Source: Clostridia bacterium (lineage in GTDB: Bacteria > Bacillota > Clostridia > Oscillospirales > SIG627). From it: a stretch of 64,000 bases of DNA. Location: assembly GCA_017440805.1 (NCBI GenBank), contig JAFSGN010000009.1, positions 4,302-68,301 on the forward strand. Direction: 5' to 3'. The notes under the pieces are model-generated. The model worked only from the letters and a program-made list of their open reading frames with translations, searched no databases and was not told where the DNA came from. The position numbers were made by a program, and so were the translations under genes. This document shows, one piece after another, positions 5,664 to 63,817 of the stretch (the first letter of the stretch is position 1; each line of letters starts with the position of its first letter).

Positions 5664-5670
5664 TTCAAGA

Positions 5671-43983: not shown

Positions 43984-44068
43984 AATAAACCTCTTGTATC
44001 CGGTTAAAAGTTTTGGTTGGTTTTTTCATATTTTATAGTGTTAGACTCACTGTTTAAGTGCTGTGTGT

Positions 44069-44920: not shown

Positions 44921-45013
44921 AAAAATTCCTTTCTTTATTGGAATGTGCGGAAATTCTTTGTTCTGCCCGGCTAATAATGCATTGGGAAAACTTATATAAA
45001 ACAGGTTTTATCT

Positions 45014-46237: not shown

Positions 46238-46239
46238 AA

Positions 46240-47178: not shown

Positions 47179-47233
47179 CTTAACTCTCCATTTATTCCGC
47201 AGCAAATTTGCCGCATTTTCCACATTGTATAAT

Positions 47234-47262
47234 ATTATAATACAAAATGCAAAAAAAGTCAA
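47234..47262 (-). promoter_or_regulatory. Consensus sigma-A promoter of the arg-car operon
   Basis: The minus strand reads TTGACT-17 nt-TATAAT. Confidence 0.6.
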
Positions 47263-48975: not shown

Positions 48976-48994
48976 TCATTTTAAACATTACAAT

Positions 48995-49033
48995 GAAAAA
49001 ATGCATGGATTTTAAAAATCCGTGCATTTTTTT
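48995..49033 (+). terminator. Rho-independent terminator
   Basis: ATGCATGGATT/AATCCGTGCAT stem followed by T7. Confidence 0.75.
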
Positions 49034-49120
49034 GTATAAAAACAGATAGGCCGCTCCCCGTCACATTTGTGTTAAATGAACAATTCATGTTGTTTATAAC
49101 ACATAACTTACAAATATGTG

Positions 49121-49149
49121 TTGACTTTATACGGAGTCAGTGCTAAAAT
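49121..49149 (+). promoter_or_regulatory. Sigma-A-type promoter of the AEC transporter gene
   Basis: TTGACT-17 nt-TAAAAT. The inverted repeat AACACATA-N9-TATGTGTT (49098-49122) overlaps the -35. Confidence 0.4.
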
Positions 49150-49180
49150 AAATACCAGTCCTATTAAAAGGAGTGTACTT

Positions 49181-50152: not shown

Positions 50153-50173
50153 ATATAATTCCAATAAAAACAG

Positions 50174-50216
50174 TGCCTCAGTAGATATAAAACTACTGCG
50201 GCATTTTATTTTTTTG
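50174..50216 (+). terminator. Rho-independent terminator
   Basis: TGCCTCAGTAG/CTACTGCGGCA stem (one mismatch) followed by TTTTATTTTTTT. Confidence 0.65.
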
Positions 50217-50561
50217 TCATATTACAATATAGCCGTTATGTTGTTTCTTTCCGGTACATTTTCTGTTCACACAGGGATAATACCGTCAAATCCGGAATAA
50301 ACCTGCAGATATTTCTGTTCACATAACCATCTCCCTGATTGCATTTTTACATGTTAATGTGCGACATATCAAGCATTTGCCGTTTTTTGCGTATATTTTC
50401 ATTATTTATGTGGATTTTTTCGTTTTTCGAAAGAAAAAGAGTGTTATAATATACTCAGATTTTTCTGTGATTTCAGACACCTGATGAAGAAAAACACACC
50501 ATTATCTCAAAATGCAAAGAAAAAATCAATAATACACATTCAAAATGAAAGGCGGATTTAT

Positions 50562-50852
50562 ATGAAAATCGGATACTTACCCCTTTACATCAAACTATAT
50601 GACGATATCGGTTCAAAAAGAGATGACATAATAAAATTCTATCTGGATACAACAGATATGTTCAGGCAACGCGGACTGGAAGTTATAACAACAGACTTCT
50701 GCCGTATAAAACCGGAATTTGAAAAAACCGCAGGATTTACAAAAATCATCAACGATTTATGTGTTGATATAAGTGCACAACTTTACAAACCCGACTGTCC
50801 CCCCTGCTCTACTTTTAAACCGCCTGTTACAACCGACGACAAAGTTCCGTAA
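50562..50852 (+). pseudogene. Probable 5' relic of an L-fucose/L-arabinose-isomerase-family gene (only about 57 N-terminal residues are recognisable)
   Basis: MKIGYLPLYIKLYDD..RGLEVITTDFCRIKPEFEKTA resembles the N-terminus of proteins about 470-500 aa long. The frame then runs into unrelated sequence and stops after 96 codons. Confidence 0.3.
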
Positions 50853-50976
50853 GTATTTCTGAAAAAATCGAAGAGGGTTTACAAAAATTAATATAATACA
50901 TTTCGGATGTAATTAAAGCAGCAAGTACCACGGTATCAGAAATTTAAACAGCACTTCGGTTGAGATGCTGTTTCTC

Positions 50977-51005
50977 TTGCTTTTTTTATTTGAATGTGAT
51001 ATAAT
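50977..51005 (+). promoter_or_regulatory. Sigma-A-type promoter (extended -10) of ppa
   Basis: TTGCTT-17 nt-TGaTATAAT. Confidence 0.45.
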
Positions 51006-51045
51006 ACAATACCTGAAACATTCTTATAGGAAAGGAGATATTCCA

Positions 51046-51579
51046 ATGTCTAATATCTGGCATGACATTTCACCAAAAAGAATACACGCCGAAGATTTTA
51101 TCTGTGTTGTGGAAATTTCAAAAGGAAGTAAGAAAAAATACGAACTTGACAAAGAAACCGGCTTTCTTATGCTGGACAGAATTCTGCACACATCAACACA
51201 CTATCCTGCAAACTACGGGTTTATTCCCAGAACTTACGGTGACGACAATGACCCGCTTGATGTACTCCTGTTATGCTCCGAGCAGATTGAACCGATGACG
51301 CTTGTCCGTGCATATCCTATCGGAGTAATTTCCATGATTGATAACGGACGCAATGACGAAAAAATAATTGCTATCCCTTTCAACGACCCAAACTATAATA
51401 TGTACAAGGATATAAGTGAACTGCCTAAACACATTTTCGAGGAAATGAGCCACTTTTTCTCGGTATATAAAAATCTTGAAAACAAAGAAACCGCAGTAAA
51501 CGAAGTCAGCGATTATAAAGTCTCGCTTAAAATAATTGACAAAGCAATCAATAATTACATAGACAAGTTTTGCAAATAA
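51046..51579 (+). CDS. ppa: Inorganic pyrophosphatase, family I
   Basis: EISKGSKKKYELDKETG, YPANYGFIP.T.GDDNDPLDVL. The ATG at 51046 follows AGGAAAGGAG. Confidence 0.93.
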   Translation: MSNIWHDISPKRIHAEDFICVVEISKGSKKKYELDKETGFLMLDRILHTSTHYPANYGFIPRTYGDDNDPLDVLLLCSEQIEPMTLVRAYPIGVISMIDNGRNDEKIIAIPFNDPNYNMYKDISELPKHIFEEMSHFFSVYKNLENKETAVNEVSDYKVSLKIIDKAINNYIDKFCK

Positions 51580-51628
51580 CGGGTATTTTACCGTAATCCG
51601 TGCGGTTATTCCGAAATCTGTATGTTCA

Positions 51629-51934
51629 TTAATATACTGGCAAAATCATACCACAAGCAATCTTTGTACCGGAATTACCCGACAGCTGGGTTATAAAGTC
51701 ATCCGGCGACGAATGAATTATAACAGTTTTTCCTATTATTTCCTCGGGAGAAAATCTGTCTGTCAAAAAAACAGAAAATCCATATCCGTCCGCACCAAAC
51801 ACAGGGGGCATATCTCCCGCGTGGTAAGGGTGTGGGCAACTGTCGGGATTATAGTGCGTCATCGCATCGGCAAATAGGTCTGTGTTGTTTCCCGTGCAAC
51901 TCCCGCCGTTATGTATATGAACCGCAAAAACAGG
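51629..51934 (-). pseudogene. 5'-truncated Cu/Zn-superoxide-dismutase-family gene fragment
   Basis: The open frame reads PVFAVHIHNGGSCTG..MTHYNPDSCPHPYHAGDMPPVF..VIIHSSPDDF..SGNSGTKIACG. This is only the C-terminal about two-thirds of the SodC fold. A TAA sits directly upstream at 51935-51937, and an upstream terminator hairpin lies about 30 nt away. The first ATG lies after the HxH motif. Confidence 0.5.
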
Positions 51935-51962
51935 TTACATACTTACTGATTTGTCTTTAATA

Positions 51963-52004
51963 TCAAAAATACCGCTGAAACGATGTCGTTTCAGCGGTAT
52001 TTTG
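51963..52004. terminator. Perfect-stem terminator downstream of the Fe-S protein gene
   Basis: ATACCGCTGAAACG-ATGT-CGTTTCAGCGGTAT 14-bp stem flanked by A5 (T5 on the minus strand) and TTTGTT. Confidence 0.7.
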
Positions 52005-52037
52005 TTATCCGGTGGTTTTCTGTTACGCCTTATAAAA

Positions 52038-52739
52038 TCACTCAATAATATTTCCGTCTGTGGAAATTGTAACCACTCTCCAGGGAATAAATTTTCCGCT
52101 TGTCATAAGAGCATTTTTTACACTAAATTCTATTCCTCCGCAACAGGGTACTTCCATTCGTACTACCGTTACACTTTTTATATTGTTGTTTGCAATTATG
52201 GCAGACAGTTTTTCCGTATAGTCGCCCTCATCAAGTTTTGGACAGCCGATAAGTGTTATATGGTTTCTTATAAATTCGTTATGAAAGTTTCCGTATGCAT
52301 ATGCTGTACAGTCTGCGGCTACCAGTAAATTTGCTCCGTCAAAATACGGTGCATTTACCGGTACAAGTTTTATCTGTACCGGCCACTGAGACAATCTGCT
52401 GATATTTTCGGTTGCAGACGGAATATTATCGGTACGGCATTCTCTGTGAATGGTTTTTGAGTGAGTTCCCGGACAACCGCAGGGAAGCGGTGTCTCCGAT
52501 TTTTGTTCCTTGGCTTTCTTCACTGCGTTTTCGTTATATACAGGGGCTTCCCTTTCTTCAAAGGTAATTGCTCCCGTAGGGCAGGCAGGCAGACAATCAC
52601 CCAGACCATCACAGTAATCCTCGCGTGTGAGTTTTGCTTTTCCGTTTATCATTTCAATTGCACCCTCATGACAGGCAGCGGCACACAAACCGCATCCATT
52701 GCATTTTTCTCCATCAATTTTTATTATTTTTCTTATCAT
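52038..52739 (-). CDS. 4Fe-4S dicluster domain protein with conserved Cys-rich C-terminal domain
   Basis: CNGCGLCAAAC and CDGLGDCLPACP ferredoxin motifs. The C-terminal part carries AADCTAYAY, IGCPKLD and VPCCGG. Confidence 0.75.
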   Translation of the reverse strand: MIRKIIKIDGEKCNGCGLCAAACHEGAIEMINGKAKLTREDYCDGLGDCLPACPTGAITFEEREAPVYNENAVKKAKEQKSETPLPCGCPGTHSKTIHRECRTDNIPSATENISRLSQWPVQIKLVPVNAPYFDGANLLVAADCTAYAYGNFHNEFIRNHITLIGCPKLDEGDYTEKLSAIIANNNIKSVTVVRMEVPCCGGIEFSVKNALMTSGKFIPWRVVTISTDGNIIE

Positions 52740-52752
52740 GTGTAATACCTCC

Positions 52753-52781
52753 TTGACTTTTCGGTTATATTATACTATAAT
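52753..52781 (+). promoter_or_regulatory. Consensus sigma-A promoter of the Crp/Fnr regulator gene
   Basis: TTGACT-17 nt-TATAAT. The palindrome GTTGT-TTTT-ACAAC at 52797-52810 lies in the leader. Confidence 0.5.
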
Positions 52782-52823
52782 AATTAAAACAAATCTGTTG
52801 TTTTTACAACGAAAGGCGGAAAA

Positions 52824-53516
52824 ATGAAAAATTTTATTCCGGTTCTGAAGAGAACACAGTTATTTTCAGGTGTAGGTACAGAAGAAACCGAATCTATGCT
52901 TTCCTGTCTTAATGCAAGACTCTGCGTATATCAAAAAGGCGAATATGTCATACGCCAGGGGGAGCATCTGAATGAGATTATTGTGTTGCTTGAAGGGAAT
53001 CTTCACATTCAGAATGACGATTACTGGGGAAACCGAAGCATATTAAGTCATATTACCCCGGGAGAAATGTATGGCGAATCTTATGTTTCACCGGAAAGCG
53101 GAACGGTTATCAACGATGTTGTTGCAACAGAAAAAAGCACCGTAATCTTTTTTAATGTCACAAGAATCCTTACAACCTGCTCTTCAGCCTGCAGGTTTCA
53201 TCAGAAAGTAATGCAGAACATGTTCTTCGCAATCTCAGAAAAAAACAGAAATCTTGTGCAGAAACTCGGACATATGTCCAAGCGTTCCACCCGTGAAAAA
53301 CTCGTTTCATATCTGTCGGAACAAGCAGGAAGACAAAACAACTCTCATTTCACCATTCCTTTCAACCGCCAGCAACTTGCGGATTTTCTGTCGGTTGACA
53401 GAAGTGCCATGTCTAACGAACTGTGCAAAATGCGGGATGAGGGACTTATAGAATTCAATAAAAACAGTTTTATTCTATTAGATAATCTGCGGAACAGTAC
53501 ACCTTCCACCGTATAA
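52824..53516 (+). CDS. Crp/Fnr family transcriptional regulator
   Basis: N-terminal cNMP-binding-like barrel and C-terminal HTH (RQQLADFLSVDRSAMSNEL). Confidence 0.88.
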   Translation: MKNFIPVLKRTQLFSGVGTEETESMLSCLNARLCVYQKGEYVIRQGEHLNEIIVLLEGNLHIQNDDYWGNRSILSHITPGEMYGESYVSPESGTVINDVVATEKSTVIFFNVTRILTTCSSACRFHQKVMQNMFFAISEKNRNLVQKLGHMSKRSTREKLVSYLSEQAGRQNNSHFTIPFNRQQLADFLSVDRSAMSNELCKMRDEGLIEFNKNSFILLDNLRNSTPSTV

Positions 53517-53550: not shown

Positions 53551-53579
53551 TTGACAAATCCGATTTTATGTGTTAGAAT
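53551..53579 (+). promoter_or_regulatory. Sigma-A promoter of T-box unit 1
   Basis: TTGACA-17 nt-TGtTAGAAT. Confidence 0.6.
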
Positions 53580-53590
53580 ATCCCCCGTAA

Positions 53591-53862
53591 ACGCAGTGAT
53601 GCGGAATAGTATGCAAAGTATTTTTGCTTTGAGAGAGATGTCGGGCGGTGCGAGACATTGGCAGAATCTTGCAGAACTCACCGTTGAGCGGCTGTCGTGA
53701 ACTTACAGTAGGGACAGACGGAAACTCCCGTAACAGAGTTAAGATGTGTTAGCATCTAAAGGGCATCCTTACAGGATGAAAAAGAGTGGTACCGCGGAAA
53801 CATTATCTGAAGTTTAACGTTTTCGTCTCTTTGAGTCAACAAAGAGATGAGAGCGTTTTTTT
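53591..53862 (+). promoter_or_regulatory. T-box leader (riboswitch) 1, specifier CUC (Leu), transcription-attenuation type
   Basis: K-turn GTGATGCGG/CCGTTGAGCG. Specifier loop with AGTA on the 5' side and GAA-CTC-A on the 3' side (CTC at 53677-53679). AGAGAG bulge, GGTGCGA distal loop, T-box GAGTGGTACCGCGG (53784-53797). Terminator stem CGTCTCTTTG/CAAAGAGATG followed by T7. Confidence 0.85.
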
Positions 53863-53910
53863 GTTGACAAAACCTTTATATTATATTTTTTATGAAAGGA
53901 AATTTCAAAA

Positions 53911-55299
53911 ATGAGAACAATCTATGTTACAGACATTACTCTTAAGAAACTTTCAGAGGACCGTGAAATATCACTGCTTTTCCGCGAAAAATCCGCCATC
54001 GCTAATTGTGCCGATGCACTCGGTGTAAATGCTATAGAGTTGCCTGCTGTAAAAAATCTTCGTGAGGATACCATTATTTATAAAACCATTGCACAAAATG
54101 TTCAGCATGCAACCCTTGCCGTTCCGGTGGGATTCAACAAGCAGGATGTTGCGTCTGTATGGGAATGCATCAAAGACGCAAAACAACCTCGCCTTCAGGT
54201 TGAACTTCCCGTTTCAACAATTCAGATGGAATATACATATCATGTAAAGCAGTCGGTTATGCTCGAAAAAATTACCGAACTCATAAAAGAAGCAAAAACA
54301 TATTGCAATGATGTGGAATTTTCAGCACTGGATTCCACACGCGCCGATGATGACTTTCTTATCTCAGCCGCAAAAGAAGCAGAGTCCGCCGGTGCAAGTA
54401 TGATAACTCTTTGCGATAATGCCGGAGTTTCGACTCCCCGTCAAATCGAAGAGATGGTTGAAAAAATCAAACAAGCGGTAAGCATTCCAGTATATATTCA
54501 GGTTTCTGACCGTATAAATATGGGTGTTGCATCATCCTTTGCAGCGATTTCAAAAGGTGCAGACGGCATTAAATGTGCCATTGCCGGCAAAGACATTCTT
54601 TTAACCGGTGAATTTTCCGACGCAATGAGTGTCTGCGGCACTCAGATTGATGCTAAAATTGAACTTAACACCACAAAAATTCATGCAAGTATTGACGAAA
54701 TGCTGTCAAACATAAATCACAAAAACTATGAAAACGAAGTATCCGTAAGCGACAGAAAAAAGATTTTGCTTGATTCCGATTCTTCCATCTCCCAGGTTGC
54801 TCACGCAGCAGAGGTTTTGGGATACCAACTTTCTGATTCGGATATGGGAAATGTATATAAAGCACTGACACAGGTATGGGAAAAGAAAGGTGCAGTAGGT
54901 TCAAAAGAATTTGAAGCGTTGATAGCAAGTTCTGCCATGCAGGCTCCTTCGACATACCATTTTGAAACATACACAACAACAAGTAGCAATGCGACAAGTT
55001 CAATGTCACAGGTTACACTTAAATGCAATGACGAAATAATATGCGGTGTCAGCAGCGGAGACGGTCCGATAGACTCTGCTTTCCGTGCAATCGAACAGTG
55101 CATAGGACATCACTATGAACTTGATGATTTTCAGGTTCAGTCCGTAACAGAAGGTAAAGAAGCCCTGGGTTCTGCGTTGGTAAGACTTCGCAACAACGGA
55201 AAACTTTATTCAGGTAACGGAACATCAACCGATATTGTCGCTGCAAGCATAAGAGCATATATAAATGCACTTAACAAAATTGTTTTTGAGGAGGCATAA
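53911..55299 (+). CDS. 2-isopropylmalate-synthase-like protein with degenerate active site but intact C-terminal LeuA regulatory/dimerisation domain
   Basis: HMGL-type barrel similarity, but DTTLRDGEQ is replaced by DITLKKLSE and HxHND by QVSDR. The C-terminus GDGPIDSAFRAIEQ..VTEGKEALGSALVRLRNNGKLYSGNGTSTDIVAASIRAYINALNK is classic LeuA_dimer. Confidence 0.75.
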   Translation: MRTIYVTDITLKKLSEDREISLLFREKSAIANCADALGVNAIELPAVKNLREDTIIYKTIAQNVQHATLAVPVGFNKQDVASVWECIKDAKQPRLQVELPVSTIQMEYTYHVKQSVMLEKITELIKEAKTYCNDVEFSALDSTRADDDFLISAAKEAESAGASMITLCDNAGVSTPRQIEEMVEKIKQAVSIPVYIQVSDRINMGVASSFAAISKGADGIKCAIAGKDILLTGEFSDAMSVCGTQIDAKIELNTTKIHASIDEMLSNINHKNYENEVSVSDRKKILLDSDSSISQVAHAAEVLGYQLSDSDMGNVYKALTQVWEKKGAVGSKEFEALIASSAMQAPSTYHFETYTTTSSNATSSMSQVTLKCNDEIICGVSSGDGPIDSAFRAIEQCIGHHYELDDFQVQSVTEGKEALGSALVRLRNNGKLYSGNGTSTDIVAASIRAYINALNKIVFEEA

Positions 55300-55300
55300 A

Positions 55301-57760
55301 ATGAAGATAGTATTTTCAACCAAGGATGTAAGTCGTGCGACTTTCCTTGATACCTGCCGTTATGCCTTTGACTACGGATTTGAAGGTTTTGAAATATATG
55401 ATGCAATCAAAGAAAGAAGTTTTCATCACGACAGCATATTAAGGCGTGACCGCACTGCTGATGCCAAAAGAAAACTTGTAAACAGAAGTCTTTCGGTTTC
55501 GGCACTCCGTATGCCCGACGGTATTGATGACCAAAATACAACCGCGGATTCGGTGGTTAAATATGTAGATATGGCTTCGGCATCAGGGATTTCCAATGTC
55601 ATTGTACGCGTTAACAATAAAATTTCCTTTGGTGTCCTGGATGAAAAACTCTGCCGTGCCATAAAAAAGGCAGAAAATACGGATGTCAATATCCTGTTTG
55701 AAACTGTGGGGGCATTGGCAAACACAGAAAATGTAATTGATATAATAAACCACTTTTCTTCTGCTGTCATCGGTGCTTCCTGGAATGTCAGAGGTACATA
55801 TTTTGATGCAGGGGAAACATCCGAGGCAACTATCAAAACTTTGGGTGCTTACATCAAGTATGTTCGTCTGGGAGATATGAAAGACGGAAAAACAGTCCTG
55901 ATTGGCGAGGGTGAACTTGATGTGGCAAAACTTATCGGTGCTCTTTCGTCGCTCAACTATGAAGGATATATTTGTGCGGCATGGAATGAGGAAATTAATG
56001 ATGCAGATATAGTTTTAACTCACTTTGCAAATTATATTTCACAACTGAACCGTGAAAAGAAATCTTTTGATAAAGCCTACTACAACAGAGATAAGACCGG
56101 AACATTTGTATGGAAAAAATACGATGTTATTGATGCCACTTTTTCCGATGTGCTTGACACTATGGTTGAAAATTACCCGGACCAGTATGCATTCAAGTAT
56201 CCCACTCTGGATTACACAAGAACTTATGAACAGTTCAGACGGGATGTGGATGATTGTGCGGCAGCCCTTATATCTCTCGGCGTAAAAGCAGGTGACCATG
56301 TTGCAGTCTGGGCAACAAATGTACCCGAATGGTTCATCACCTTCTGGGCAACAACAAAAATCGGCGCAGTTCTGGTTACTGTAAACACTGCGTATAAAAT
56401 TCATGAAATTGAATATCTTCTGAAACAGTCTGATACACATACTCTGGTTATGATTGAGTTTTGTAAAGACATCAATTACAAGGAAATTATTGAGGAACTC
56501 TGTCCGGAACTCAAAACTCTTACTCCCGGTCAACCCCTCTATTCTAAAAATCTTCCGTTCCTCAGAAATGTTATAACAGCAGGATTTTCTATGGACGGAT
56601 GTCTTACCTGGGAACAGATGCTTTCCCGTTCCTATCTTGTTCCCCGTGAAGAAGTAAGAAGACGCGCGTCCCTTGTTAAGCCTGACGATGTATGCAACAT
56701 GCAGTATACATCAGGTACAACAGGTTTCCCAAAAGGTGTTATGCTTACACACCGTAATATCGTTAACAACGGTAAAACTATCGGTGACAGAATGGATTTG
56801 TCAACAGCCGACCGTATGATGATTCAGGTGCCTATGTTCCATTGCTTCGGCATGGTGCTTTCAATGACATCAATGATGACTCACGGCGGAACACTTTGTC
56901 CCATTCCGTATTTCTCACCCAAGTCATCTCTTGCCTGTGTAAATGATGAGAAAATCACCTGCTTTAACGGTGTACCTACAATGTTTATTGCAATGTTTGC
57001 CCATCCTGATTTTGCAAAAACAGACTTTTCATATATGCGTACAGGTATAATGGCGGGTGCAAACTGCCCGGCAGATTTAATGCGCCGTGCATCTGTGGAA
57101 ATGAATATGCGTGAAATTATTTCGGTGTACGGTCAGACCGAGGCTTCCCCCGGATGTACCATGGGTGAAGTTAACGAAGACCTTGACCACAGAGTAGAAA
57201 CTGTCGGAAGTGCATTTCCCGGCGTTGAATGTAAGATTATTGACCCTGAAACAGGCAAAGAACTTCCCGACGGAGAGAGCGGTGAATTTGTTGCCCGCGG
57301 TTTCAATATTATGAAAGGCTATTACAAAATGCCGGAAGCAACCGCTCAGGCGATAGATGAAGACGGATGGCTCCATTCCGGCGACATTTGTATGAGAACA
57401 CCTGACGGATACTACAAGGTTACAGGTCGTCTTAAAGATATGATTATCCGCGGAGGAGAAAACTTATATCCAAGAGAGATTGAAGAGTTCTATCTTACAA
57501 ATCCGAAGGTACGCGATGTTCAGGTTGTGGGCGTACCCGACGAAAGATACGGTGAGGAATGTTGTGCCTGGGTTATTCTTCACAAGGGAGAAACTGCCGA
57601 CGAAAATGAAATGAAAGAATTCGGCAATGCTTCCATTGCAAGACATAAAGTGCCAAAATACTTCTTGTTTGTTGATAGCTTCCCAATGAACGCTGCAGGT
57701 AAAATTCTCAAATACAAAATGCGGGAGGAATCAGCCGAAAAATTAGGCCTTAAAAAATAA
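55301..57760 (+). CDS. Fusion protein: xylose-isomerase-like TIM-barrel (sugar-phosphate isomerase/epimerase family) domain plus FadD-type AMP-forming acyl-CoA ligase
   Basis: The N-terminal about 255 aa is a TIM-barrel family (GFEGFEI.., ..YEGYICAAWNEE). The C-terminal about 555 aa carries MQYTSGTTGFPKGVMLTH (A3), YGQTE, GWLHSGD and GKILKYKMRE. The ATG at 55301 follows GAGGAGG, 1 nt after the preceding stop. Confidence 0.85.
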   Translation: MKIVFSTKDVSRATFLDTCRYAFDYGFEGFEIYDAIKERSFHHDSILRRDRTADAKRKLVNRSLSVSALRMPDGIDDQNTTADSVVKYVDMASASGISNVIVRVNNKISFGVLDEKLCRAIKKAENTDVNILFETVGALANTENVIDIINHFSSAVIGASWNVRGTYFDAGETSEATIKTLGAYIKYVRLGDMKDGKTVLIGEGELDVAKLIGALSSLNYEGYICAAWNEEINDADIVLTHFANYISQLNREKKSFDKAYYNRDKTGTFVWKKYDVIDATFSDVLDTMVENYPDQYAFKYPTLDYTRTYEQFRRDVDDCAAALISLGVKAGDHVAVWATNVPEWFITFWATTKIGAVLVTVNTAYKIHEIEYLLKQSDTHTLVMIEFCKDINYKEIIEELCPELKTLTPGQPLYSKNLPFLRNVITAGFSMDGCLTWEQMLSRSYLVPREEVRRRASLVKPDDVCNMQYTSGTTGFPKGVMLTHRNIVNNGKTIGDRMDLSTADRMMIQVPMFHCFGMVLSMTSMMTHGGTLCPIPYFSPKSSLACVNDEKITCFNGVPTMFIAMFAHPDFAKTDFSYMRTGIMAGANCPADLMRRASVEMNMREIISVYGQTEASPGCTMGEVNEDLDHRVETVGSAFPGVECKIIDPETGKELPDGESGEFVARGFNIMKGYYKMPEATAQAIDEDGWLHSGDICMRTPDGYYKVTGRLKDMIIRGGENLYPREIEEFYLTNPKVRDVQVVGVPDERYGEECCAWVILHKGETADENEMKEFGNASIARHKVPKYFLFVDSFPMNAAGKILKYKMREESAEKLGLKK

Positions 57761-57788
57761 CAAGGTCTTATCAGCGGCTATAAATCCG

Positions 57789-58589
57789 ATGAAAAATTAC
57801 AAAATTATAGATGCTCACTGCCATATTTATCCGGATAAAATTGCTCAGAAAGCATCGGAAAGTACCGGAAATTTTTACAGCATTCAGATGAGTCTTGACG
57901 GCAAAATATCCACACTTCTGGAACATGGAAAAACTGCCGGTATCTCCCATTTCATAGTACAGTCTGTTGCAACTACTCCAAAGCAGGTTTCCAGTATAAA
58001 CAACTTTATTGCCTCTTCGGTCAATGAAAGCAACGGTGAATTTACAGGCTTGGGAACTCTTCATCCCGACAGCGAAAACTTGAAATCAGATGTTGATGAA
58101 ATATTGCGTCTCGGATTGAAAGGCGTGAAACTTCATCCCGATATACAGCAGTTCAAAATAGACGATTACCGTATGCTGAAAATATACGAACTTTGCGAAG
58201 AAAAACTCCCCATTCTTATACATACGGGAGACCACCGTTATGACCTTTCAAACCCAAACAGAATTATGCCCATACTCGACATATATAAAAATCTGACGGT
58301 CATAGGAGCACATTTCGGCGGTTGGTCCATCTGGGAAGAAGCAACAGAAAAACTTTGTAAGTACCGCAATTTCTATGTGGACTGTTCATCTTCGCTTTAT
58401 GCCATAACGCCCGACAAAGCAAAGGAACTTATTATGGCATACGGAACAAACAGGGTTCTTTTCGGAACAGATTATCCCATGTGGGAACCAAAAGAGGAAA
58501 TTGAAAAATTTATGCAGATTGACCTTACAGATGATGAGCGTCGGGACATACTGTATAACAATGCCGCAAAGTTGTTTGGCATACAATAA
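57789..58589 (+). CDS. Amidohydrolase-2 (PF04909-type metal-dependent TIM-barrel hydrolase) family protein
   Basis: IIDAHCHIYP (HxH) at the N-terminus, GVKLHP, and FGTDYPMW (Asp) near the C-terminus. Confidence 0.75.
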   Translation: MKNYKIIDAHCHIYPDKIAQKASESTGNFYSIQMSLDGKISTLLEHGKTAGISHFIVQSVATTPKQVSSINNFIASSVNESNGEFTGLGTLHPDSENLKSDVDEILRLGLKGVKLHPDIQQFKIDDYRMLKIYELCEEKLPILIHTGDHRYDLSNPNRIMPILDIYKNLTVIGAHFGGWSIWEEATEKLCKYRNFYVDCSSSLYAITPDKAKELIMAYGTNRVLFGTDYPMWEPKEEIEKFMQIDLTDDERRDILYNNAAKLFGIQ

Positions 58590-58633
58590 AAACGACGGGC
58601 TGAAAAATTTTTTAAACTTTTTTCAAAAACCCC

Positions 58634-58662
58634 TTGACAAATTGAAATTTGCGGAGTATAAT
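58634..58662 (+). promoter_or_regulatory. Consensus sigma-A promoter of T-box unit 2
   Basis: TTGACA-17 nt-TATAAT. Confidence 0.6.
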
Positions 58663-58691
58663 ACATTCCAAGGTTTGAATATCACAAAAAA

Positions 58692-58956
58692 CGACTGTGA
58701 CGAGGACGGTCGGATTGTGAGGCCTTGAGAGAGTTGCCGGGTGGTGCGAGGCAATGGCGGAACTTTCCAATGACTTATCACCTCTGAGTCGAAGGACCGA
58801 AAAGTTTTACTTAGTAGACTCCTTCCGTAACGCTGCGTAAAAGCAAAGAACTTGTTTGAGTTCAGTAAGTGACGGAATACTTGTATTCCGTAATTTGAGT
58901 GGTACCGCGGGTTGTTATAACTCGTCTCAAAGTTATCTTTGGGGCGAGTTTTTTGT
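58692..58956 (+). promoter_or_regulatory. T-box leader (riboswitch) 2, specifier position reads AUC (Ile; tentative), transcription-attenuation type
   Basis: Base stem CGACT/AGTCG. K-turn GTGACGAGG/CCTCTGAG. ATC-A directly 5' of the CCTC helix (58777-58780). AGAGAG bulge, GGTGCGA distal loop, T-box GAGTGGTACCGCGG (58897-58910). Terminator CTCGTCTCAAAG/CTTTGGGGCGAG followed by T6. Confidence 0.8.
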
Positions 58957-59013
58957 TTTATTCGGATTTGTAAACAAATATCACATTTGTCAGATTTGAA
59001 AGGAGACAAAACA

Positions 59014-61314
59014 ATGGATTACAGTTTAAAAGAAGTGGCAGGAAGAATCAAGGACCTGCGTGAAGCAAAAGGTTTTACGCCGGACCAACTTGCAAAACTT
59101 ACAGGTGTATCTGTTGAAGATTACAAAGTTTTAGAGAGAGGCGAAACAGACTTCACCTTCACATTCATTTACAAATGTGCAAAGGCTTGTGGCGTTGAAG
59201 TTGTTGATTTGCTCGAAGGAACAAGCAGTACCCTCACCTCTTTTACCGTTACAAGAAAAGGCGAAGGACTTAAAATTTTAAAGAAGCACGGGGTGGAATA
59301 CGACAATCTGGCTCCCAAGTTCAAAGAAAAACTTGCCGAACCGTTCCTTGTTAAATTCCCCTATCTTGAAGAAGAACAAAATCAGCCGATAAAATTGAGT
59401 TCACACAATGGTCAGGAATTTGATATCATTGTCAAAGGCTCTCTCAAAGTTCAGGTCGGAAACCATATAGATGTTCTCAATGAAGGTGATTCTATTTTCT
59501 ACAACAGTATCATTCCCCATGGTATGGTTGCTGTTTCAGAGGGCGGTTGTGAATTTCACGCAATCGTTTTAAATCCGCAAGACGGACTTGTAAGCGAAGA
59601 ATACCCCGATGCACCTATTTCATCTGAAAAGCATCTGGTAAAAGAGGTTAAATCCGGAACTGTTGCCGATGATTTCATTGAATCATCCTATGACGAAAAC
59701 GGTGTATTCAACGGCATAACCTTCAAAAATGCGGATAAATTCAATTTTGCATTTGACTGTGTGGATGCAATCGCACAAAAAAATCCCGACAAACTTGCAA
59801 TGATGTGGGTTGCAAACGATAAAACAGACAGAAGATTTACTTTCAGTGATTTGAAAAAGTATTCAAACAAAACCGCAAACTATTTTGAATCTCTGGGAAT
59901 CAAAAAAGGCGATACCGTAATGCTGGTATTAAAACGCCACTATCAGTTCTGGTTCTGCATGCTTGCACTTCATAAAATCGGTGCTATCGCAATCCCCGCG
60001 ACAAACCAACTTGTAGAACACGATTTTGATTACAGATATAAAGCGGCAAGAGTAAAAGCAGTTGTCTGCACAAATGACGGCGAGGTTTCATGTGAAGCAG
60101 AAAAAGCCGCGGCAAACTATCCCGGAATGGTAAAAGTTCTGGTTGGCGGTGAAAAAGAGGGATGGCACGATTTCAATGTTGAAATGGAACGCTTCAGCAC
60201 ACACTTTGACAGAAACGAAAACTCCCCCTGCGGAAATGAGCCTATGCTTATGCTCTTTACCTCCGGTACAACAGGATACCCCAGAATTGCAACACATTCA
60301 TATAAATACGCATTGGGACATTATCCCACAGCAAAGCATTGGCACAATGTAAATCCCGACGGACTTCATTTCACAATCTCCGATACAGGTTGGGGTAAGG
60401 CTCTCTGGGGCAAACTCTACGGTCAATGGTTATGTGAAGCAGCCGTATTTACTTATGACTTTGATAGATTCCGCTCGGAAGACATCCTGCCCATGTTTGC
60501 AAAATATCATATTACAACTTTCTGTGCTCCCCCTACAATGTACCGTTTCTTCATCAAGGAAGATTTGTCAAAGTATGACCTTTCATCCATCGAATATGCT
60601 ACAACAGCAGGCGAAGCACTGAACCCTGAAGTATTCAATCAGTTCAAGAAAGCAACAGGACTTACAATCATGGAAGGGTTCGGTCAGACAGAAACAACAC
60701 TTTCCATCGCAAACTTTGTAGGCTCAACTCCCAAAATCGGTTCAATGGGCAGACCCAGTCCTTTATATGATGTAGTTGTCCTTGACCCTGACGGAAACGA
60801 ATGTAAAACAGGCGACACAGGTGAAATCTGTATCCGCACAAAAGACGGTTCTCCCTGCGGTCTCTTTATCGGATATTACCTTGACGAGGAAAAGACCAAA
60901 GAGGTCTGGTATGACGGATACTATCATACAGGCGACCAGGCAACCATGGACGAAGACGGATATCTCTGGTATGTGGGCCGTATCGATGATGTAATCAAAT
61001 CCTCCGGCTACCGCATCGGTCCTTTTGAAATAGAAAGTGTTATCATGGAACTTCCTTATGTTCTTGAATGTGCAATTACTCCGGTTCCCGATGAGGTCCG
61101 CGGACAGATTGTAAAAGCGACAATCGTACTTGTTAAAGGAACAACCGGCACAGACGAGTTAAAAAAAGAAATCCAGGAATATGTAAAAACACATACTGCT
61201 CCTTATAAGTACCCGAGAATTGTCGAGTTTGTAGATGAACTTCCAAAGACAATCAGCGGTAAAATCAGGCGTGTGGAAATCCGTAAGAACGACCAGAAAA
61301 AAATGAGCAAATAA
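59014..61314 (+). CDS. Fusion protein: XRE-type HTH, cupin domain and ACSM/MbcS-type AMP-forming (medium/short-chain) acyl-CoA synthetase
   Basis: Residues 1-65 are an HTH_3 domain (LREAKGFTPDQLAKLTGVSVEDYKVLERGE). Residues about 100-195 are a cupin (GQEFDIIVKGSLKV..GDSIFYNS.IPHG). The remainder is an adenylate-forming enzyme (LFTSGTTGYPRIA, GFGQTET, YHTGD, SGKIRR). The ATG at 59014 follows AAAGGAGA. Confidence 0.85.
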   Translation: MDYSLKEVAGRIKDLREAKGFTPDQLAKLTGVSVEDYKVLERGETDFTFTFIYKCAKACGVEVVDLLEGTSSTLTSFTVTRKGEGLKILKKHGVEYDNLAPKFKEKLAEPFLVKFPYLEEEQNQPIKLSSHNGQEFDIIVKGSLKVQVGNHIDVLNEGDSIFYNSIIPHGMVAVSEGGCEFHAIVLNPQDGLVSEEYPDAPISSEKHLVKEVKSGTVADDFIESSYDENGVFNGITFKNADKFNFAFDCVDAIAQKNPDKLAMMWVANDKTDRRFTFSDLKKYSNKTANYFESLGIKKGDTVMLVLKRHYQFWFCMLALHKIGAIAIPATNQLVEHDFDYRYKAARVKAVVCTNDGEVSCEAEKAAANYPGMVKVLVGGEKEGWHDFNVEMERFSTHFDRNENSPCGNEPMLMLFTSGTTGYPRIATHSYKYALGHYPTAKHWHNVNPDGLHFTISDTGWGKALWGKLYGQWLCEAAVFTYDFDRFRSEDILPMFAKYHITTFCAPPTMYRFFIKEDLSKYDLSSIEYATTAGEALNPEVFNQFKKATGLTIMEGFGQTETTLSIANFVGSTPKIGSMGRPSPLYDVVVLDPDGNECKTGDTGEICIRTKDGSPCGLFIGYYLDEEKTKEVWYDGYYHTGDQATMDEDGYLWYVGRIDDVIKSSGYRIGPFEIESVIMELPYVLECAITPVPDEVRGQIVKATIVLVKGTTGTDELKKEIQEYVKTHTAPYKYPRIVEFVDELPKTISGKIRRVEIRKNDQKKMSK

Positions 61315-61322
61315 AACTTCAT

Positions 61323-61355
61323 GCCGAGGGAGATAAATCACCCTCGGCTTATTTT
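61323..61355 (+). terminator. Terminator-like hairpin between the ligase and ACT-MBL genes (possibly partial)
   Basis: GCCGAGGG-N10-CCCTCGGC followed by TTATTTT. Confidence 0.4.
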
Positions 61356-61374
61356 GTAAAAGAGGTGAATCGGG

Positions 61375-62811
61375 TTGAAAAAAACATATGTAACTTCCAT
61401 GCCAAACCATATAGGTGCCTTTTTGAAAGCAAGTAAATGCTTTTCGGAATTGGGGGTAAATATCACCCGTGTAAGTTATAACAAGGCAGTTGATTCCCAC
61501 ACCTTGTTTATTGACGCCGAAGGAACAGAGGAACAATTAAAAAAGGCAGATAACCAACTTGAGAAAATCGGATATCTGCAAAGCAATACGAATAAGACCA
61601 GTATCGTTTTGATTGAGTTCTGTCTTGAAGATGTACCGGGAAGTGTTACAAATGTACTTGAACTTATAAATAAATTCAACTTCAATATATCCTATATCAG
61701 TTCTCAGGAAAACGGTACAGATTATCAATATTTCAAAATGGGTTTATATGTTGATGATTTTGATAAAATTTCCGAGTTTTTAAAAGAAGTGGAGAAACTT
61801 TGTAAAGTTCGTGTGATAGACTACAACAGTTCCGAAAAGGTGTATGATAACAGTATTTTTTACAACACCTATGTTTTAGGTCTGTCGCAGACAATGGGAC
61901 TTTCGGAAAAAATAAGCCGTGAACTTTTGGTACATGTCAACCTTGCAATGCAGACACTTGACGAACAAGGACTGTCTCCGTACCGCACTTTTGACAGTAT
62001 AAGTAAGTTTGCCGAACTTTTAGGCGACTCAAAGGGGAAAAATTTTAATCCCCGCATAAGCACTCACAGAATAACTGACAACACCGAAATAATTCTTATA
62101 GAGCCTCCCTGCGGAAGCAATACCATAATTATAAAAAGCAATGAAAAGGTTCTGTTTGTAGACAGCGGATATGCCTGTTATGCGGATGAGATGCTGGAAG
62201 TATTCAAAAAATTATTTCCCGGGTTTGACAAAATGGAAAAGACAATTCTTGTAACTCACGCAGATGTGGACCACTGCGGACTTTTACCGTTGTTCGATAA
62301 GATAATTGCAAGTAAAAAAACTGCGGACTGTCTTGTTAATGAACACCAGGGCAAAAACGGTTACAGAGAATCAAATCCTCTCCATAAGCCATATATTAAT
62401 ATCTGTAAAATTTTAACATCATATCAGGCATTGGAGCCATGTAAAATAACTGCTATGTGGAATGATGTTCCCGACCTGACAGAACCTCTGACACAAATCG
62501 GATTTTTCAACTTTGAAGAACTGCACTTTGAGGTATACGAAGGAAAGGGCGGTCATCTGCCCGGCGAGATTGTGCTGATAGATTATTCAAAACATATTGC
62601 CATCACAGGCGACATTTATATCAACACACACGGCCTGACTGAAAAACAGGCAAAATACAACCAGTATGCACCAATCCTTATGACCTCAGTGGACACCGAC
62701 CCGAATTTGTGTTTAGAGGAAAGAAAAGCAATTATGCAAAGACTGGGCGTAGGCACCTGGCAGATATTTGGCGCACACGGATTCAAAAAAGATTATTCGG
62801 TTAATTTATAA
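61375..62811 (+). CDS. Fusion protein: tandem ACT domains plus metallo-beta-lactamase-fold hydrolase
   Basis: Two ACT-like units (NHIGAFLKASKCFSELGVNITRVS and DVPGSVTNVLELINKFNFNISYIS), then an MBL core (VTHADVDHCG as HxHxDH variant, ..ITGDIYI.., GAHG). The TTG start follows AGAGGTGA. Confidence 0.75.
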   Translation: MKKTYVTSMPNHIGAFLKASKCFSELGVNITRVSYNKAVDSHTLFIDAEGTEEQLKKADNQLEKIGYLQSNTNKTSIVLIEFCLEDVPGSVTNVLELINKFNFNISYISSQENGTDYQYFKMGLYVDDFDKISEFLKEVEKLCKVRVIDYNSSEKVYDNSIFYNTYVLGLSQTMGLSEKISRELLVHVNLAMQTLDEQGLSPYRTFDSISKFAELLGDSKGKNFNPRISTHRITDNTEIILIEPPCGSNTIIIKSNEKVLFVDSGYACYADEMLEVFKKLFPGFDKMEKTILVTHADVDHCGLLPLFDKIIASKKTADCLVNEHQGKNGYRESNPLHKPYINICKILTSYQALEPCKITAMWNDVPDLTEPLTQIGFFNFEELHFEVYEGKGGHLPGEIVLIDYSKHIAITGDIYINTHGLTEKQAKYNQYAPILMTSVDTDPNLCLEERKAIMQRLGVGTWQIFGAHGFKKDYSVNL

Positions 62812-62880: not shown

Positions 62881-62927
62881 GGGGGTGTAAAAACTCTGTT
62901 TGAGTTTTTTACACCCCCTGTCTTTTT
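62881..62927. terminator. Bidirectional terminator
   Basis: GGGGGTGTAAAAACTC/GAGTTTTTTACACCCCC followed by TGTCTTTTT. Confidence 0.7.
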
Positions 62928-63817
62928 CAATCGGAAAAGTCTTTTTCAATTATGTATTTGAGCAAACTTTTAAGCGACCTTGACAACCACTTGTTTTTAT
63001 GGTAGATAAGCTGCTTCCAAATCTCAACATTCATATCGCAAATATCAAGATAACAAAGTTCCCCCGATTCAACCAGTTCTTTTGTAACGAAATCAGGAAG
63101 AAAAGAATATACATCATCTTTTGCAATCAACGAGGTTATCATATCTGTTCTTCCGATTTCAAGTATGGGTACTATTTCCAACGATTTTTTTGCAAGTTCC
63201 TTGTCAAAAACTCTCCTGTATCCCTGACCGTATTCGGTCAAAACAAATGGTTGGTCAATTATATCCCTGATTGATAAATTTTTAACTCCCGCGAATCTTG
63301 ACCGGGCATTCGCCACAAAGTGCATGGATACAGGTTCCTCTTTTGCAATGACATAATCCTTATGGTATGAGTGACTGTCAAGTGTTATAATAACATCTGC
63401 TTCGTTATGGTCAAGCATATCAAACATAACAGATGTGTCTGCAGTTGTAAATTTAACCGAAATACCGGGGTATCTTTTATGAAAATCAATATAATTCCCG
63501 GTAATCATGGCATCACACAATGAGTCGGGTGTTACAATATGTATATGTCCTTTGCATTCTCTGTCTTCCCCGGTATTTTCCTTGAATTCCTCTGTTAAAG
63601 AGCGAACACGGTGTGCATAGGAAACAAGTTCGTGACCTCTCTCGGTAAGGGTTACGGTATGATTTATTCTTTCAAACAAAAGACAACCCAGTTCATCTTC
63701 AAGTTGCTTTATCTGAAAAGATATGGTAGATTGGGAATACCCGAGTTGTTCCGCTGTTTTTGTAAAACTACCCAGTTCAGCAACATGAATAAAAGTGATT
63801 AAATTGCGTAATTCCAT
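62927..63817 (-). CDS. LysR family transcriptional regulator
   Basis: N-terminal HTH LRNLITFIHVAELGSFTKTAEQLGYSQSTISFQIKQLE, followed by a LysR substrate-binding domain. Confidence 0.92.
   Translation of the reverse strand: MELRNLITFIHVAELGSFTKTAEQLGYSQSTISFQIKQLEDELGCLLFERINHTVTLTERGHELVSYAHRVRSLTEEFKENTGEDRECKGHIHIVTPDSLCDAMITGNYIDFHKRYPGISVKFTTADTSVMFDMLDHNEADVIITLDSHSYHKDYVIAKEEPVSMHFVANARSRFAGVKNLSIRDIIDQPFVLTEYGQGYRRVFDKELAKKSLEIVPILEIGRTDMITSLIAKDDVYSFLPDFVTKELVESGELCYLDICDMNVEIWKQLIYHKNKWLSRSLKSLLKYIIEKDFSD

Follow-up and report, generated by a model that had tools for sequence, protein, structure and literature searches.

Introduction

Since the 1960s, many anaerobes of the rumen and the gut have been known to need or to use isovalerate, 2-methylbutyrate, isobutyrate and phenylacetate as sources of leucine, isoleucine, valine and phenylalanine. 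The classical work of Allison and Bryant is said to have dealt with the physiology and the labelling of these conversions, and not with the activation genes or their regulation; to our knowledge, and as far as our searches of the literature show, it has yet to be established which genes activate these acids in the Clostridia and how such genes are controlled. Here, we analyze a stretch of 64,000 nucleotides (the window, in all that follows) from a Clostridia bacterium (GenBank assembly GCA_017440805.1, contig JAFSGN010000009.1, positions 4,302 to 68,301). It contains a cluster of five genes, which we call g1 to g5, arranged in two units that each begin with a T-box riboswitch and each encode an acyl-CoA ligase, and we argue that the cluster probably serves to salvage branched-chain carboxylates for the synthesis of leucine and isoleucine.

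T-boxes sense the uncharged form of their cognate tRNA, a sign of scarcity of the amino acid, and then induce the expression of the genes that follow them. Two enzymes that recur below, the 2-oxoacid:ferredoxin oxidoreductase VOR and the branched-chain aminotransferase (BCAT), are classically catabolic in peptide fermenters, and a reverse operation of AMP-forming synthetases has been proposed in some syntrophs. In rumen anaerobes, 2-methylbutyrate and isovalerate are documented precursors of isoleucine and leucine (PMC10658910). The ligase MacsMa of Methanosarcina acetivorans has 2-methylbutyrate as its preferred substrate, and its Trp259, an alternate pocket residue, is critical (PMC10455477). 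In Staphylococcus aureus, the ligase MbcS is reported to supply primers for branched-chain fatty acids (BCFA) from 2-methylbutyrate and isobutyrate (PMC10026030, PMC11167679).

Materials and Methods

The whole 64-kb window was scanned with cmscan against Rfam 15 (the gathering score of the T-box family RF00230 is 93 bits), and its proteins were compared with Pfam and NCBIfam. The public gene calls were taken from an ENA metagenome scaffold identical to the window. A search with g2, limited to one genome per species, revealed at least 598 species-level genomes with a homolog, and 80 of these loci were fetched; all 80 come from uncultured metagenome-assembled genomes (MAGs), mostly of the ruminant hindgut and rumen, which are labelled Clostridia, Acutalibacteraceae, Oscillospiraceae and Christensenellaceae, plus two Spirochaetales MAGs. 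These loci were complemented by an independent search seeded with VorA, of which the 80 best loci were examined, and by a g5-seeded comparison of 80 loci. The comparative loci are labelled L001, L031 and so on, and their coordinates are given as locus:position.

The specifier codons of the T-boxes were read in three ways: by alignment of Stem I (MAFFT), from Rfam alignments of examples and by a K-turn-anchored heuristic census of all the fetched loci. A regex-based structural parser of the specifier loops produced too many failures and was discarded.

Results

Two T-Box Units in the Cluster

At the gathering score, the Rfam scan of the whole window gave exactly two matches, both to the T-box family, and each of these leaders stands between a promoter and an intrinsic terminator (table 1). 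The cluster contains two promoter/T-box/terminator units, the first preceding g1, g2 and g3 and the second g4 and g5; the region is uniform in base composition. On its 3' side, the specifier loop of leader 1 reads GAA-CUC-A in the alignment to the covariance model, with CUC (Leu) at 53677-53679, and that of leader 2 reads GACUu-AUC-A, with AUC (Ile) at 58777-58779, so that in both leaders a purine (A) directly follows the specifier codon. Both leaders have the T-box bulge UGGU (53787-53790 in leader 1 and 58900-58903 in leader 2), which pairs with an A discriminator base such as that of tRNA-Leu and tRNA-Ile, and both have the Stem I elements AGAGA and GGUGCGA; the conserved T-box sequences AGAGUGGUACCGCG and UGAGUGGUACCGCG are found in the two leaders. 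In each case, the antiterminator shares its 3' strand with the 5' arm of the terminator. The window was searched for tRNA genes, and none was found. The word GTGGTACTGCG at 20504-20514 resembles a T-box core, but RF00230 has no match there and it was rejected as a chance occurrence.

An earlier sequence-only reading of this DNA had described two near-consensus promoters, T-box leaders and intrinsic terminators, all of which were confirmed by a consensus scan, by Rfam and by a terminator scan. It had also read the specifiers as CUC and AUC; the RF00230 alignment gives the same two codons, and assigns neither leader to an amino acid other than a branched-chain one.

The Two Ligases

The product of g4 combines an N-terminal module of ~235 residues, a helix-turn-helix (HTH) domain of the XRE type followed by a cupin, with a ligase (AMP-binding 199.9 bits, C domain 78 bits) that bears the motifs FTSGTTGYPR and SGKIRR. 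Over 525 residues, the ligase domain is 56% identical to MacsMa (PDB 3ETC, E 4e-203), and the critical Trp259 of MacsMa is kept, since TAKHW aligns with TAKYW. Given this likeness, we propose that g4 encodes a MacsMa-type 2-methylbutyrate-CoA ligase. The sequence-only reading had called the enzyme MbcS-type. This label holds insofar as the two proteins belong to the same ANL subfamily and MbcS is still the best NCBIfam family for g4; however, the score of 454.9 bits falls well below the MbcS equivalog cut-off of 850 (NF047394), and MacsMa is the better reference. We place the start of g4 at ATG 59014, behind the ribosome-binding site (RBS) AAAGGAGA, as does the public gene call; the start of the mechanically derived open reading frame (ORF), TTG 58939, lies inside the terminator and was rejected. 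Six relatives (L031, L033, L041 and L080-L082) have the HTH-cupin module and the ligase in two genes, the former just 5' of the latter.

The product of g2 is also a fusion, of a xylose-isomerase-like TIM barrel (residues 1-250) with a medium/short-chain acyl-CoA ligase (residues 280-819) in which the ANL motifs are intact (YTSGTTGFPKG and AAGKILK; AMP-binding 319.5 bits, AMP-binding_C 58.4 bits). Its start was taken as ATG 55301 (RBS GAGGAGG) and not 55265, again in agreement with the public gene call. The best NCBIfam match of the protein is to PRK12583, "fatty acid CoA ligase family" (668 bits, below the cut-off of 832), and the best PDB matches of its ligase domain are to fatty-acyl, feruloyl and malonyl-CoA synthetases (E 1e-79 to 1e-67). 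Isovalerate can be assigned to g2 only because of the Leu T-box and the linkage, described below, to VOR and BCAT; on these grounds, we propose that g2 is an isovalerate-CoA ligase.

Linkage to VOR and BCAT in Relatives

About 30 of the g2 loci have their ligases in a single same-strand array together with a BCAT, a P-loop protein and VorD, VorA, VorB and VorG. The BCAT is of the IlvE type (NF009897, 468 bits against a cut-off of 307) and the VOR alpha subunit matches the NCBIfam VorB model NF005507 (557 bits against 399); the beta and gamma subunits were recognized by Pfam matches, and VorD is an ORF of 68 residues with 2x[4Fe-4S]. The independent VorA-seeded search led back to the same arrays: most of its 80 best loci carry g4 and/or g1-g2, as well as the BCAT and the P-loop gene. 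The T-boxes of these loci precede g4-P-loop-VorDABG-BCAT or, in a direct position, P-loop-Vor, and the leaders of such VOR-BCAT operons read AUC in L217 (83.6 bits, E 2e-18), CUC in L236 (94.7 bits) and GUA in L230 (99.7 bits). A VOR-type oxidoreductase behind T-boxes, which the sequence-only reading had proposed to look for, is present in the relatives, and the orthologous clusters lie beside BCAT and VorDABG and not in lipid or secondary-metabolite loci.

Loci L217 and L084 both come from one MAG, RGIG2110, whose g2, g4 and g5 are 89-90% identical to those of the window. In this near relative, the ligases are unlinked to VOR and BCAT, as they are in the window, and its Ile-T-box VOR-BCAT operon is hence located elsewhere in the genome. 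The same split arrangement was seen in the MAGs RGIG7512, T1900044810 bin 10 and DOME_MAG_4360.

The P-loop NTPase has 222 residues, is of the CbiA/ParA (NUBPL-like) kind and is found in 31 g2 loci, where it usually lies 5' of VorD-VorA (for example L055:4904-5572, followed by 5583-5789). It matches no NCBIfam family and may be an Fe-S or assembly factor specific to VOR.

Conservation of the Units and the Val and Phe Arms

In every g2 locus that holds both genes, g1 adjoins g2, and g4 is usually near the pair, on either strand. A T-box word occurs ~100 nt 5' of g1 in 58 of the 72 assessable loci, and a T-box lies 5' of g4 in 54 of the 58 assessable genes, so that the association of these architectures with T-boxes, which had been suggested from the window, extends to the relatives. 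In the K-turn-anchored census, a heuristic that misreads some leaders and whose counts are therefore lower bounds, the g1 leaders gave CUC 51 times, CUG three times and CCC once, and the g4 leaders gave AUC 61 times, GUA 19 times and GUC once; the Stem I alignment and the Rfam alignments of examples agree with these readings. In L075, a tmRNA gene (RF00023, 168 bits; L075:5778-6127) is located immediately 5' of the Leu T-box unit.

Many genomes contain two g4 paralogs, each behind its own T-box. The g4 genes with a GUA (Val) leader are monophyletic (17/17), and an example of such a leader scores 82.5 bits in Rfam (E 1.5e-18). The Ile and Val types of g4 differ consistently at only four positions. 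At one of these, residue 461 in the DTGWGK segment, the Ile type and MacsMa have Gly and the Val type has Ala; by analogy with acetyl-CoA synthetase, we take this position to line the acyl pocket. The bulkier residue of the Val type would fit the smaller isobutyrate, and residue 461 is in this analogy a candidate for the switch in specificity between 2-methylbutyrate and isobutyrate.

The relatives also contain units in which a PaaK-like ligase (526 bits, against a PaaK cut-off of 646) is followed by a protein with a pair of ACT domains (PF19571); in 10 of 11 cases, they are preceded by a T-box that reads GAA-UUC-A/C (Phe). The raw columns of the covariance model would give these leaders UCC or UCA (Ser), a reading that was rejected because GAA-UUC-A/C keeps the register of the other leaders. 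A purine follows the UUC codon in 5 of the 11, and the T-box UGGU fits A73 of tRNA-Phe. These units suggest a salvage of phenylacetate to phenylalanine in the same genomes. The Val and Phe arms extend the logic of amino-acid-matched ligases beyond the Leu and Ile of the sequence-only reading. The Phe-T-box PaaK units are found at L075:16435-18448 and L027:4100-6177, and in L020, L102, L103, L109, L110, L149, L150 and L158; in the close relatives, the Phe unit lies just beyond a lysR gene and a symporter gene (SSF), that is, at a place corresponding to just past the right end of the window. Two leaders with odd specifiers, one before a g1 gene (L037:2586-2832) and one before a PaaK gene (L007:2636-2886, minus strand), are each one base off, from CUC and UUC, respectively.

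Loci without a T-Box

Seven of the loci with no obvious T-box before g1 were scanned with Rfam at the gathering score, and nothing was found; an E-value scan of L031 likewise found no known RNA family. In L031, L033, L034 and L041, the operon is g1-g2-BCAT-P-loop-VorDABG-[HTH-cupin][ligase], and g1 is preceded by a consensus promoter, a leader peptide of 34-36 codons and a GC-rich terminator. The leader peptide is conserved, with an Ile/Leu-rich run ANILLLIAIIILAI in the peptide MNMQSFFTANILLLIAIIILAITKPDKNSAVCRVFK and its variants (L031:6340-6580), and the fold of the L031 leader has an energy of -62.7 kcal/mol (z -7). The control of this clade looks, from these sequence features, like attenuation by an Ile/Leu leader peptide, a mode unusual in Firmicutes, with the same regulatory sign as the T-box and a different mechanism.

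In the T-box-less loci L078 and L080-L082, the perfect palindrome CTTATAGTGCATAAG occurs once per locus, just 3' of the -10 box in the promoter of g1 (table 1). A standalone HTH-cupin gene is present in L080-L082, and L078 ends before the corresponding position. The palindrome CTTATAGTGCATAAG is a candidate operator for this standalone HTH-cupin regulator.

The Dead LeuA Paralog and the Accessory Domains

The product of g1, whose gene is tightly coupled to g2, has the layout of LeuA: a TIM barrel, a linker and the LeuA regulatory/dimerization domain. In an alignment over the TIM barrel with the LeuA structures 3ewb and 3rmj, however, LRDGEQ has become LKKLSE and HxH has become QxS, so that the substrate-binding Arg and the three metal ligands are all replaced (R to K, D to K, H to Q and H to S, at K12, K13, Q197 and S199). 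Asp and His are absent from the three metal-ligand positions in 70 of 70 orthologs, in which position 13 is K, E, Q, V, T or N, position 197 is Q, K, E, C, A or R, and position 199 is S or N. Conservation is highest in the regulatory domain, which has a mean identity of 78% among the 70 orthologs against 57% for the barrel and is recognized by PF08502 (110 bits, cut-off 24.9). The protein stays below all of the NCBIfam LeuA equivalog cut-offs (best 247.8 bits against 532), and NCBI names its orthologs either "hypothetical protein" or [quoted passage not shown]. Judged by its residues, g1 is a catalytically dead paralog of LeuA, whose loss of the three metal ligands the sequence-only reading had already noted, and we propose that it may be the leucine-sensing partner of g2.

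The TIM barrel of g2 (PF01261, 40.1 bits, cut-off 31.1) gives a confident AF2 model (pLDDT 89.8) with eight beta/alpha units. Foldseek matches it to UlaE (TM up to 0.76), ketose 3-epimerases and AsbF at TM 0.7-0.76 and 13-17% identity, a generic likeness; a PDB sequence search with the domain found no match, and its homologs were found only within this fusion. Invariant polar residues stand at the C-terminal ends of the strands (E31, E134, W161, R164 and D192). The invariant E134 and the near-invariant E231 may correspond to two positions of the canonical Glu/Asp/His/Glu metal site, and the other strand ends carry N162, R164, R189 and D192.

The g3 product belongs to PF04909 (107 bits, cut-off 26.4), a family with reversible decarboxylases, lactonases and hydratases among its members. 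It has the HxH metal motif at its N-terminus (IDAHCHIYP), and the best PDB sequence match is 3irs, an uncharacterized protein. By its family, g3 would be a metal hydrolase or decarboxylase, and it appears to be an accessory gene: it follows g2 in only about one third of the loci, and in L217 it follows VOR-BCAT.

The product of g5 consists of two ACT units, a helical linker and a domain of the metallo-beta-lactamase (MBL) fold (PF00753, 34.7 bits, cut-off 22.7). The second, N-terminal ACT-like unit (beta-alpha-beta-beta-alpha-beta) is visible only in an AF2 model of moderate quality (pLDDT 68.8). With this qualification, the five domain architectures are those that had been described from the window, as judged by Pfam and NCBIfam. 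The zinc motif of g5 is HADVDH (HxDxDH), compared with HAHADH in BcII, and departs from the canonical HxHxDH; it is invariant among 20 aligned orthologs. Foldseek returned generic matches only: MBLs including BcII, flavodiiron proteins, ODP and ACT pairs. The family is very large, with more than 4100 homologs; the 120 best matches among them are 86-90% identical and bear no other name than "MBL fold metallo-hydrolase". Among the 80 g5-seeded loci, g5 is directly 3' of g4 in 39 and directly after a MaoC-like gene in 17; in three it directly follows an Ile T-box, and in a few it follows PaaK-ACT. This neighbourhood suggests that g5 is a conserved accessory gene of the ligase units.

Neighbouring Genes

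A LysR-family regulator is convergent with g5 (table 1), and a lysR(-)/SSF(+) pair lies 3' of g5 in many loci (for example L086, L101, L102 and L119), the SSF protein of the relatives being a sodium/solute symporter by NCBIfam; whether the LysR gene belongs to the system is uncertain. The SSF gene of the scaffold that is identical to the window (L001:20330-21355, approximately 64240-65265 in window coordinates) is just past the right end and encodes 179 residues; in the relatives the symporter has ~510-550 residues. Judged by this length, this genome may have a truncated transporter. A MaoC-like hotdog gene lies 3' of the SSF gene in L001, on the opposite strand.

Upstream of the cluster, Pfam labels on the public gene calls (42820-47262 on the minus strand, and 47524-53516) identify an argD-argB-argJ-argC cluster, a xanthine/uracil permease, an AEC/SBF transporter and an inorganic pyrophosphatase, as well as two genes for a ferredoxin-domain protein and a Crp-family regulator (table 1), which tblastn did not find beside the cluster in other genomes.

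Table 1. Coordinates of the cluster, its control elements and flanking genes (window positions), and of the palindrome in four relatives (locus:position)
Feature	Position	Strand	Description
Ferredoxin-domain protein	52038-52739	-	233 residues; Pfam label
Crp-family regulator	52824-53516		Pfam label
Promoter, unit 1	53551..53579	+	TTGACA-17-TAGAAT, TG-extended -10, 11/12 consensus
T-box leader 1	53587..53833	+	RF00230, 126.5 bits, E 1.1e-27, model 1-219
Terminator, leader 1	53816..53865	+	18-pair stem + T run; hairpin 53816-53857
g1	53911..55299	+	Pfam HMGL-like 6e-33, LeuA_dimer 1e-31
g2	55301..57760	+	Pfam AP_endonuc_2, AMP-binding, AMP-binding_C
g3	57789..58589	+	Pfam Amidohydro_2 (PF04909) 1.9e-30
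Promoter, unit 2	58634..58662	+	TTGACA-17-TATAAT, 12/12 consensus
T-box leader 2	58688..58932	+	RF00230, 95.0 bits, E 1.5e-19, model 1-219
Terminator, leader 2	58919..58958	+	14-pair stem + T run; hairpin 58919-58950
g4	59014..61314	+	Pfam HTH_3, Cupin_2, AMP-binding(+C)
g5	61375..62811	+	Pfam ACT, Lactamase_B
LysR-family regulator	62927..63817	-	HTH_1, LysR_substrate; convergent with g5
Palindrome CTTATAGTGCATAAG	L078:6508-6522		
Palindrome CTTATAGTGCATAAG	L080:6518-6532		
Palindrome CTTATAGTGCATAAG	L081:6511-6525		
Palindrome CTTATAGTGCATAAG	L082:6516-6530		

Discussion

A Probable Salvage Pathway Gated by Uncharged tRNA

We consider it probable that the cluster mediates a T-box-gated activation of branched-chain acids, which are then converted by reductive carboxylation and transamination to the branched-chain amino acids (BCAAs). 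Under this scheme, an uncharged tRNA-Leu(GAG) would pair with the CUC codon and the UGGU bulge of leader 1 and stabilize the antiterminator, so that g1-g2-g3 is transcribed, and an uncharged tRNA-Ile(GAU) would likewise open leader 2 and allow the transcription of g4-g5. The g4 ligase would convert 2-methylbutyrate, with ATP and CoA, to 2-methylbutyryl-CoA, and the g2 ligase would convert isovalerate to its thioester, isovaleryl-CoA. With reduced ferredoxin, a VorDABG encoded outside the window would then carboxylate these acyl-CoAs to 2-keto-3-methylvalerate and 2-ketoisocaproate, which an IlvE-type aminotransferase, also encoded outside the window, would turn into isoleucine and leucine. In the relatives, a Val arm would consist of the g4 paralog behind the GUA T-box, presumably acting on isobutyrate, and a Phe arm of the PaaK-like ligase behind the UUC T-box, presumably acting on phenylacetate. 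The use of two ligase families makes chemical sense, the MacsMa-type enzyme for the alpha-branched acids of the Ile and Val arms and another for the beta-branched isovalerate. We infer both the substrates and the anabolic direction, the latter from the sign of the T-box and attenuator control. A salvage of branched-chain carboxylates to leucine and isoleucine had also been proposed in the sequence-only reading, and it is now supported by the linkage to VOR and BCAT, the likeness to MacsMa, the Val and Phe arms, the matching T-boxes and the Ile/Leu leader peptide of the T-box-less clade, which represents an independent convergence on the same regulation.

Not everything in the loci fits this scheme equally well. 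VOR, BCAT and PaaK were searched for in the 64-kb window and none was found, and the ligase domain of g2 is without a close characterized relative. Several of the Ile and Val leaders lie below the Rfam gathering score, with E-values of ~1e-18. Of the two leaders with odd specifiers, the one before g1 in L037 gives CCC (Pro) and the one before PaaK in L007 gives UGC (Cys), differences that could be either consensus errors in the MAGs or real changes. Finally, a simple three-step pathway has no need of the dead LeuA, of the conserved polar pocket in the g2 barrel, of the amidohydrolase or of the highly conserved ACT-ACT-MBL protein, and such parts may mean that the Leu arm has a different substrate or performs an extra reaction.

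The last of these points can be developed into an explanation in its own right, in which the Leu unit is a new multi-step enzyme for some other leucine precursor (a hydroxy, keto or conjugated acid) and both the TIM barrel and the PF04909 protein are catalytic. The invariable pairing and tight coupling of g1 and g2 (55299/55301), the invariant polar residues E31, E134, W161, R164 and D192 of the barrel, the intact HxH motif of g3 and the chemical breadth of its family would all suit such an enzyme. Nonetheless, we find it improbable: g3 is absent from most of the loci, the metal ligands of LeuA are gone and their replacements vary at two of the three positions among the orthologs, the fold likeness of the TIM domain is only generic at 13-17% identity, and in the relatives the canonical operon g1-g2-BCAT-P-loop-VorDABG is already a complete route from isovalerate to leucine. 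Another use for the ligases would be a salvage of lipid primers, like that performed by MbcS, in which the branched acyl-CoAs are starters for membrane BCFA and the T-boxes are present since a shortage of BCAAs starves the cell of primers. MbcS is the best NCBIfam family for g4 (455 bits), it is reported to supply such primers in S. aureus (PMC10026030, PMC11167679), and VOR and BCAT, both reversible, could feed the same pool. But g4 misses the MbcS cut-off (455 vs 850), amino-acid-specific T-boxes and an Ile/Leu leader peptide precede operons in which BCAT and VOR accompany the ligases, and a Phe arm built on a PaaK-like ligase would make no sense for lipids; moreover, there is no fab or pls gene among the recurrent neighbour families, of which only the most frequent were annotated by Pfam and NCBIfam. 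We judge this explanation unlikely, and note that lipid-primer use and amino-acid salvage are compatible with each other.

The same enzymes could in principle run in the opposite direction, BCAT and VOR oxidizing BCAAs and the AMP-forming ligases working in reverse to yield ATP and excreted branched acids. There are precedents, for VOR and BCAT in peptide fermenters and for reverse-running synthetases in syntrophs. However, an induction by T-boxes at times of amino acid scarcity is the opposite of what a catabolic pathway needs, the leader-peptide variant imposes the same sign of control, and each ligase is matched to the specifier of a single amino acid, so that this energy-conserving role strikes us as very improbable indeed.

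Returning to the salvage of branched-chain carboxylates as the preferred reading, we infer that the dead LeuA (by way of its conserved leucine-binding regulatory domain), the cupin/HTH and the ACT domains would add a second, post-transcriptional layer of control by end products. In a more elaborate version, each ligase would be fused to or partnered with its own amino acid receptor, so that allosteric feedback is superimposed on the riboswitch: a dead LeuA docking on the TIM barrel of g2 for leucine, a cupin for isoleucine and valine (with the HTH making these ligases "trigger enzymes", at once enzyme and transcription factor) and an ACT pair for phenylalanine, with the ACT-ACT-MBL protein as a shared amino-acid-gated hydrolase, for example a relief valve for acyl-CoA or acyl-AMP. 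This version is offered tentatively, as a possibility that we consider less likely than not. If it is true, the dead LeuA is a leucine receptor subunit that was recruited from an enzyme once regulated by that very domain.

Implications

The genes described here provide a concrete set of candidates for a rumen observation that is 60 years old: amino-acid-specific ligases together with VorDABG and IlvE, each coupled to the matching tRNA by a T-box or, in one clade, by a leader peptide. They extend the T-box regulon to the salvage of carboxylates, and they have a bearing on the supplementation of ruminant diets with branched-chain volatile fatty acids. For the reconstruction of metabolism from MAGs, the consequence is that carriers of such clusters may be prototrophic for BCAAs only when their neighbours provide branched acids, and that the dead LeuA ought not to be counted toward a leucine biosynthesis pathway. 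The g1 protein is, in addition, a natural candidate for a pseudoenzyme that acts as a sensor.

Comparison with Known Systems

Much of what is found in these loci is already known: the riboswitch class, the ANL ligases, VOR, IlvE and the physiology. Our full-text searches of the literature found no report that links T-boxes to these ligases, with the reservation that an earlier mention, for example in the 2008 comparative genomics of T-boxes, is not excluded. As far as established, what is new is the placing of these ligases, and of VOR-BCAT, under T-boxes for Leu, Ile, Val and Phe, the layout of one ligase per amino acid, and three architectures: the dead LeuA with a TIM::ligase fusion, the HTH-cupin::ligase and the ACT-ACT::MBL protein.

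With respect to its regulation, the window has the same riboswitch class and logic as the Leu T-box of the ilv-leu operon of Bacillus subtilis and as the T-box genes for aminoacyl-tRNA synthetases and transporters. The known T-box operons, however, encode de novo ilv/leu enzymes, synthetases and transporters, whereas here they encode acyl-CoA ligases, joined in the relatives by VOR and BCAT. The three steps of the reductive carboxylation route of rumen bacteria and methanogens match the ligase, VorDABG and IlvE of the relatives; the loci connect this route with particular ligases, with putative sensor modules that are fused to them or partner them, and with control by T-boxes or a leader peptide.

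Among the individual enzymes, MacsMa shares with g4 its 56% identity over 525 residues, the core ANL motifs and Trp259, and its preference for 2-methylbutyrate matches the Ile specifier of g4; in contrast, MacsMa is without the HTH(XRE)-cupin module, and g4 is bacterial, is controlled by a T-box and has sister paralogs behind Val T-boxes. MbcS, of the same ANL subfamily, activates 2-methylbutyrate and isobutyrate but feeds fatty-acid primers; g4 is not its ortholog and has a context of BCAT and VOR under T-boxes. The LeuA order of TIM barrel, linker and LeuA_dimer domain is maintained in g1, with the regulatory domain most conserved, but the catalytic ligands are missing and g1 is always paired with the TIM::ligase gene and not with leuBCD. 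Lastly, the PaaK-like ligase and ACT-pair protein of the relatives repeat the pattern seen in the window, a ligase plus an amino-acid-binding module; the Phe T-box of the relatives points to a salvage of phenylacetate and not to its aerobic catabolism.

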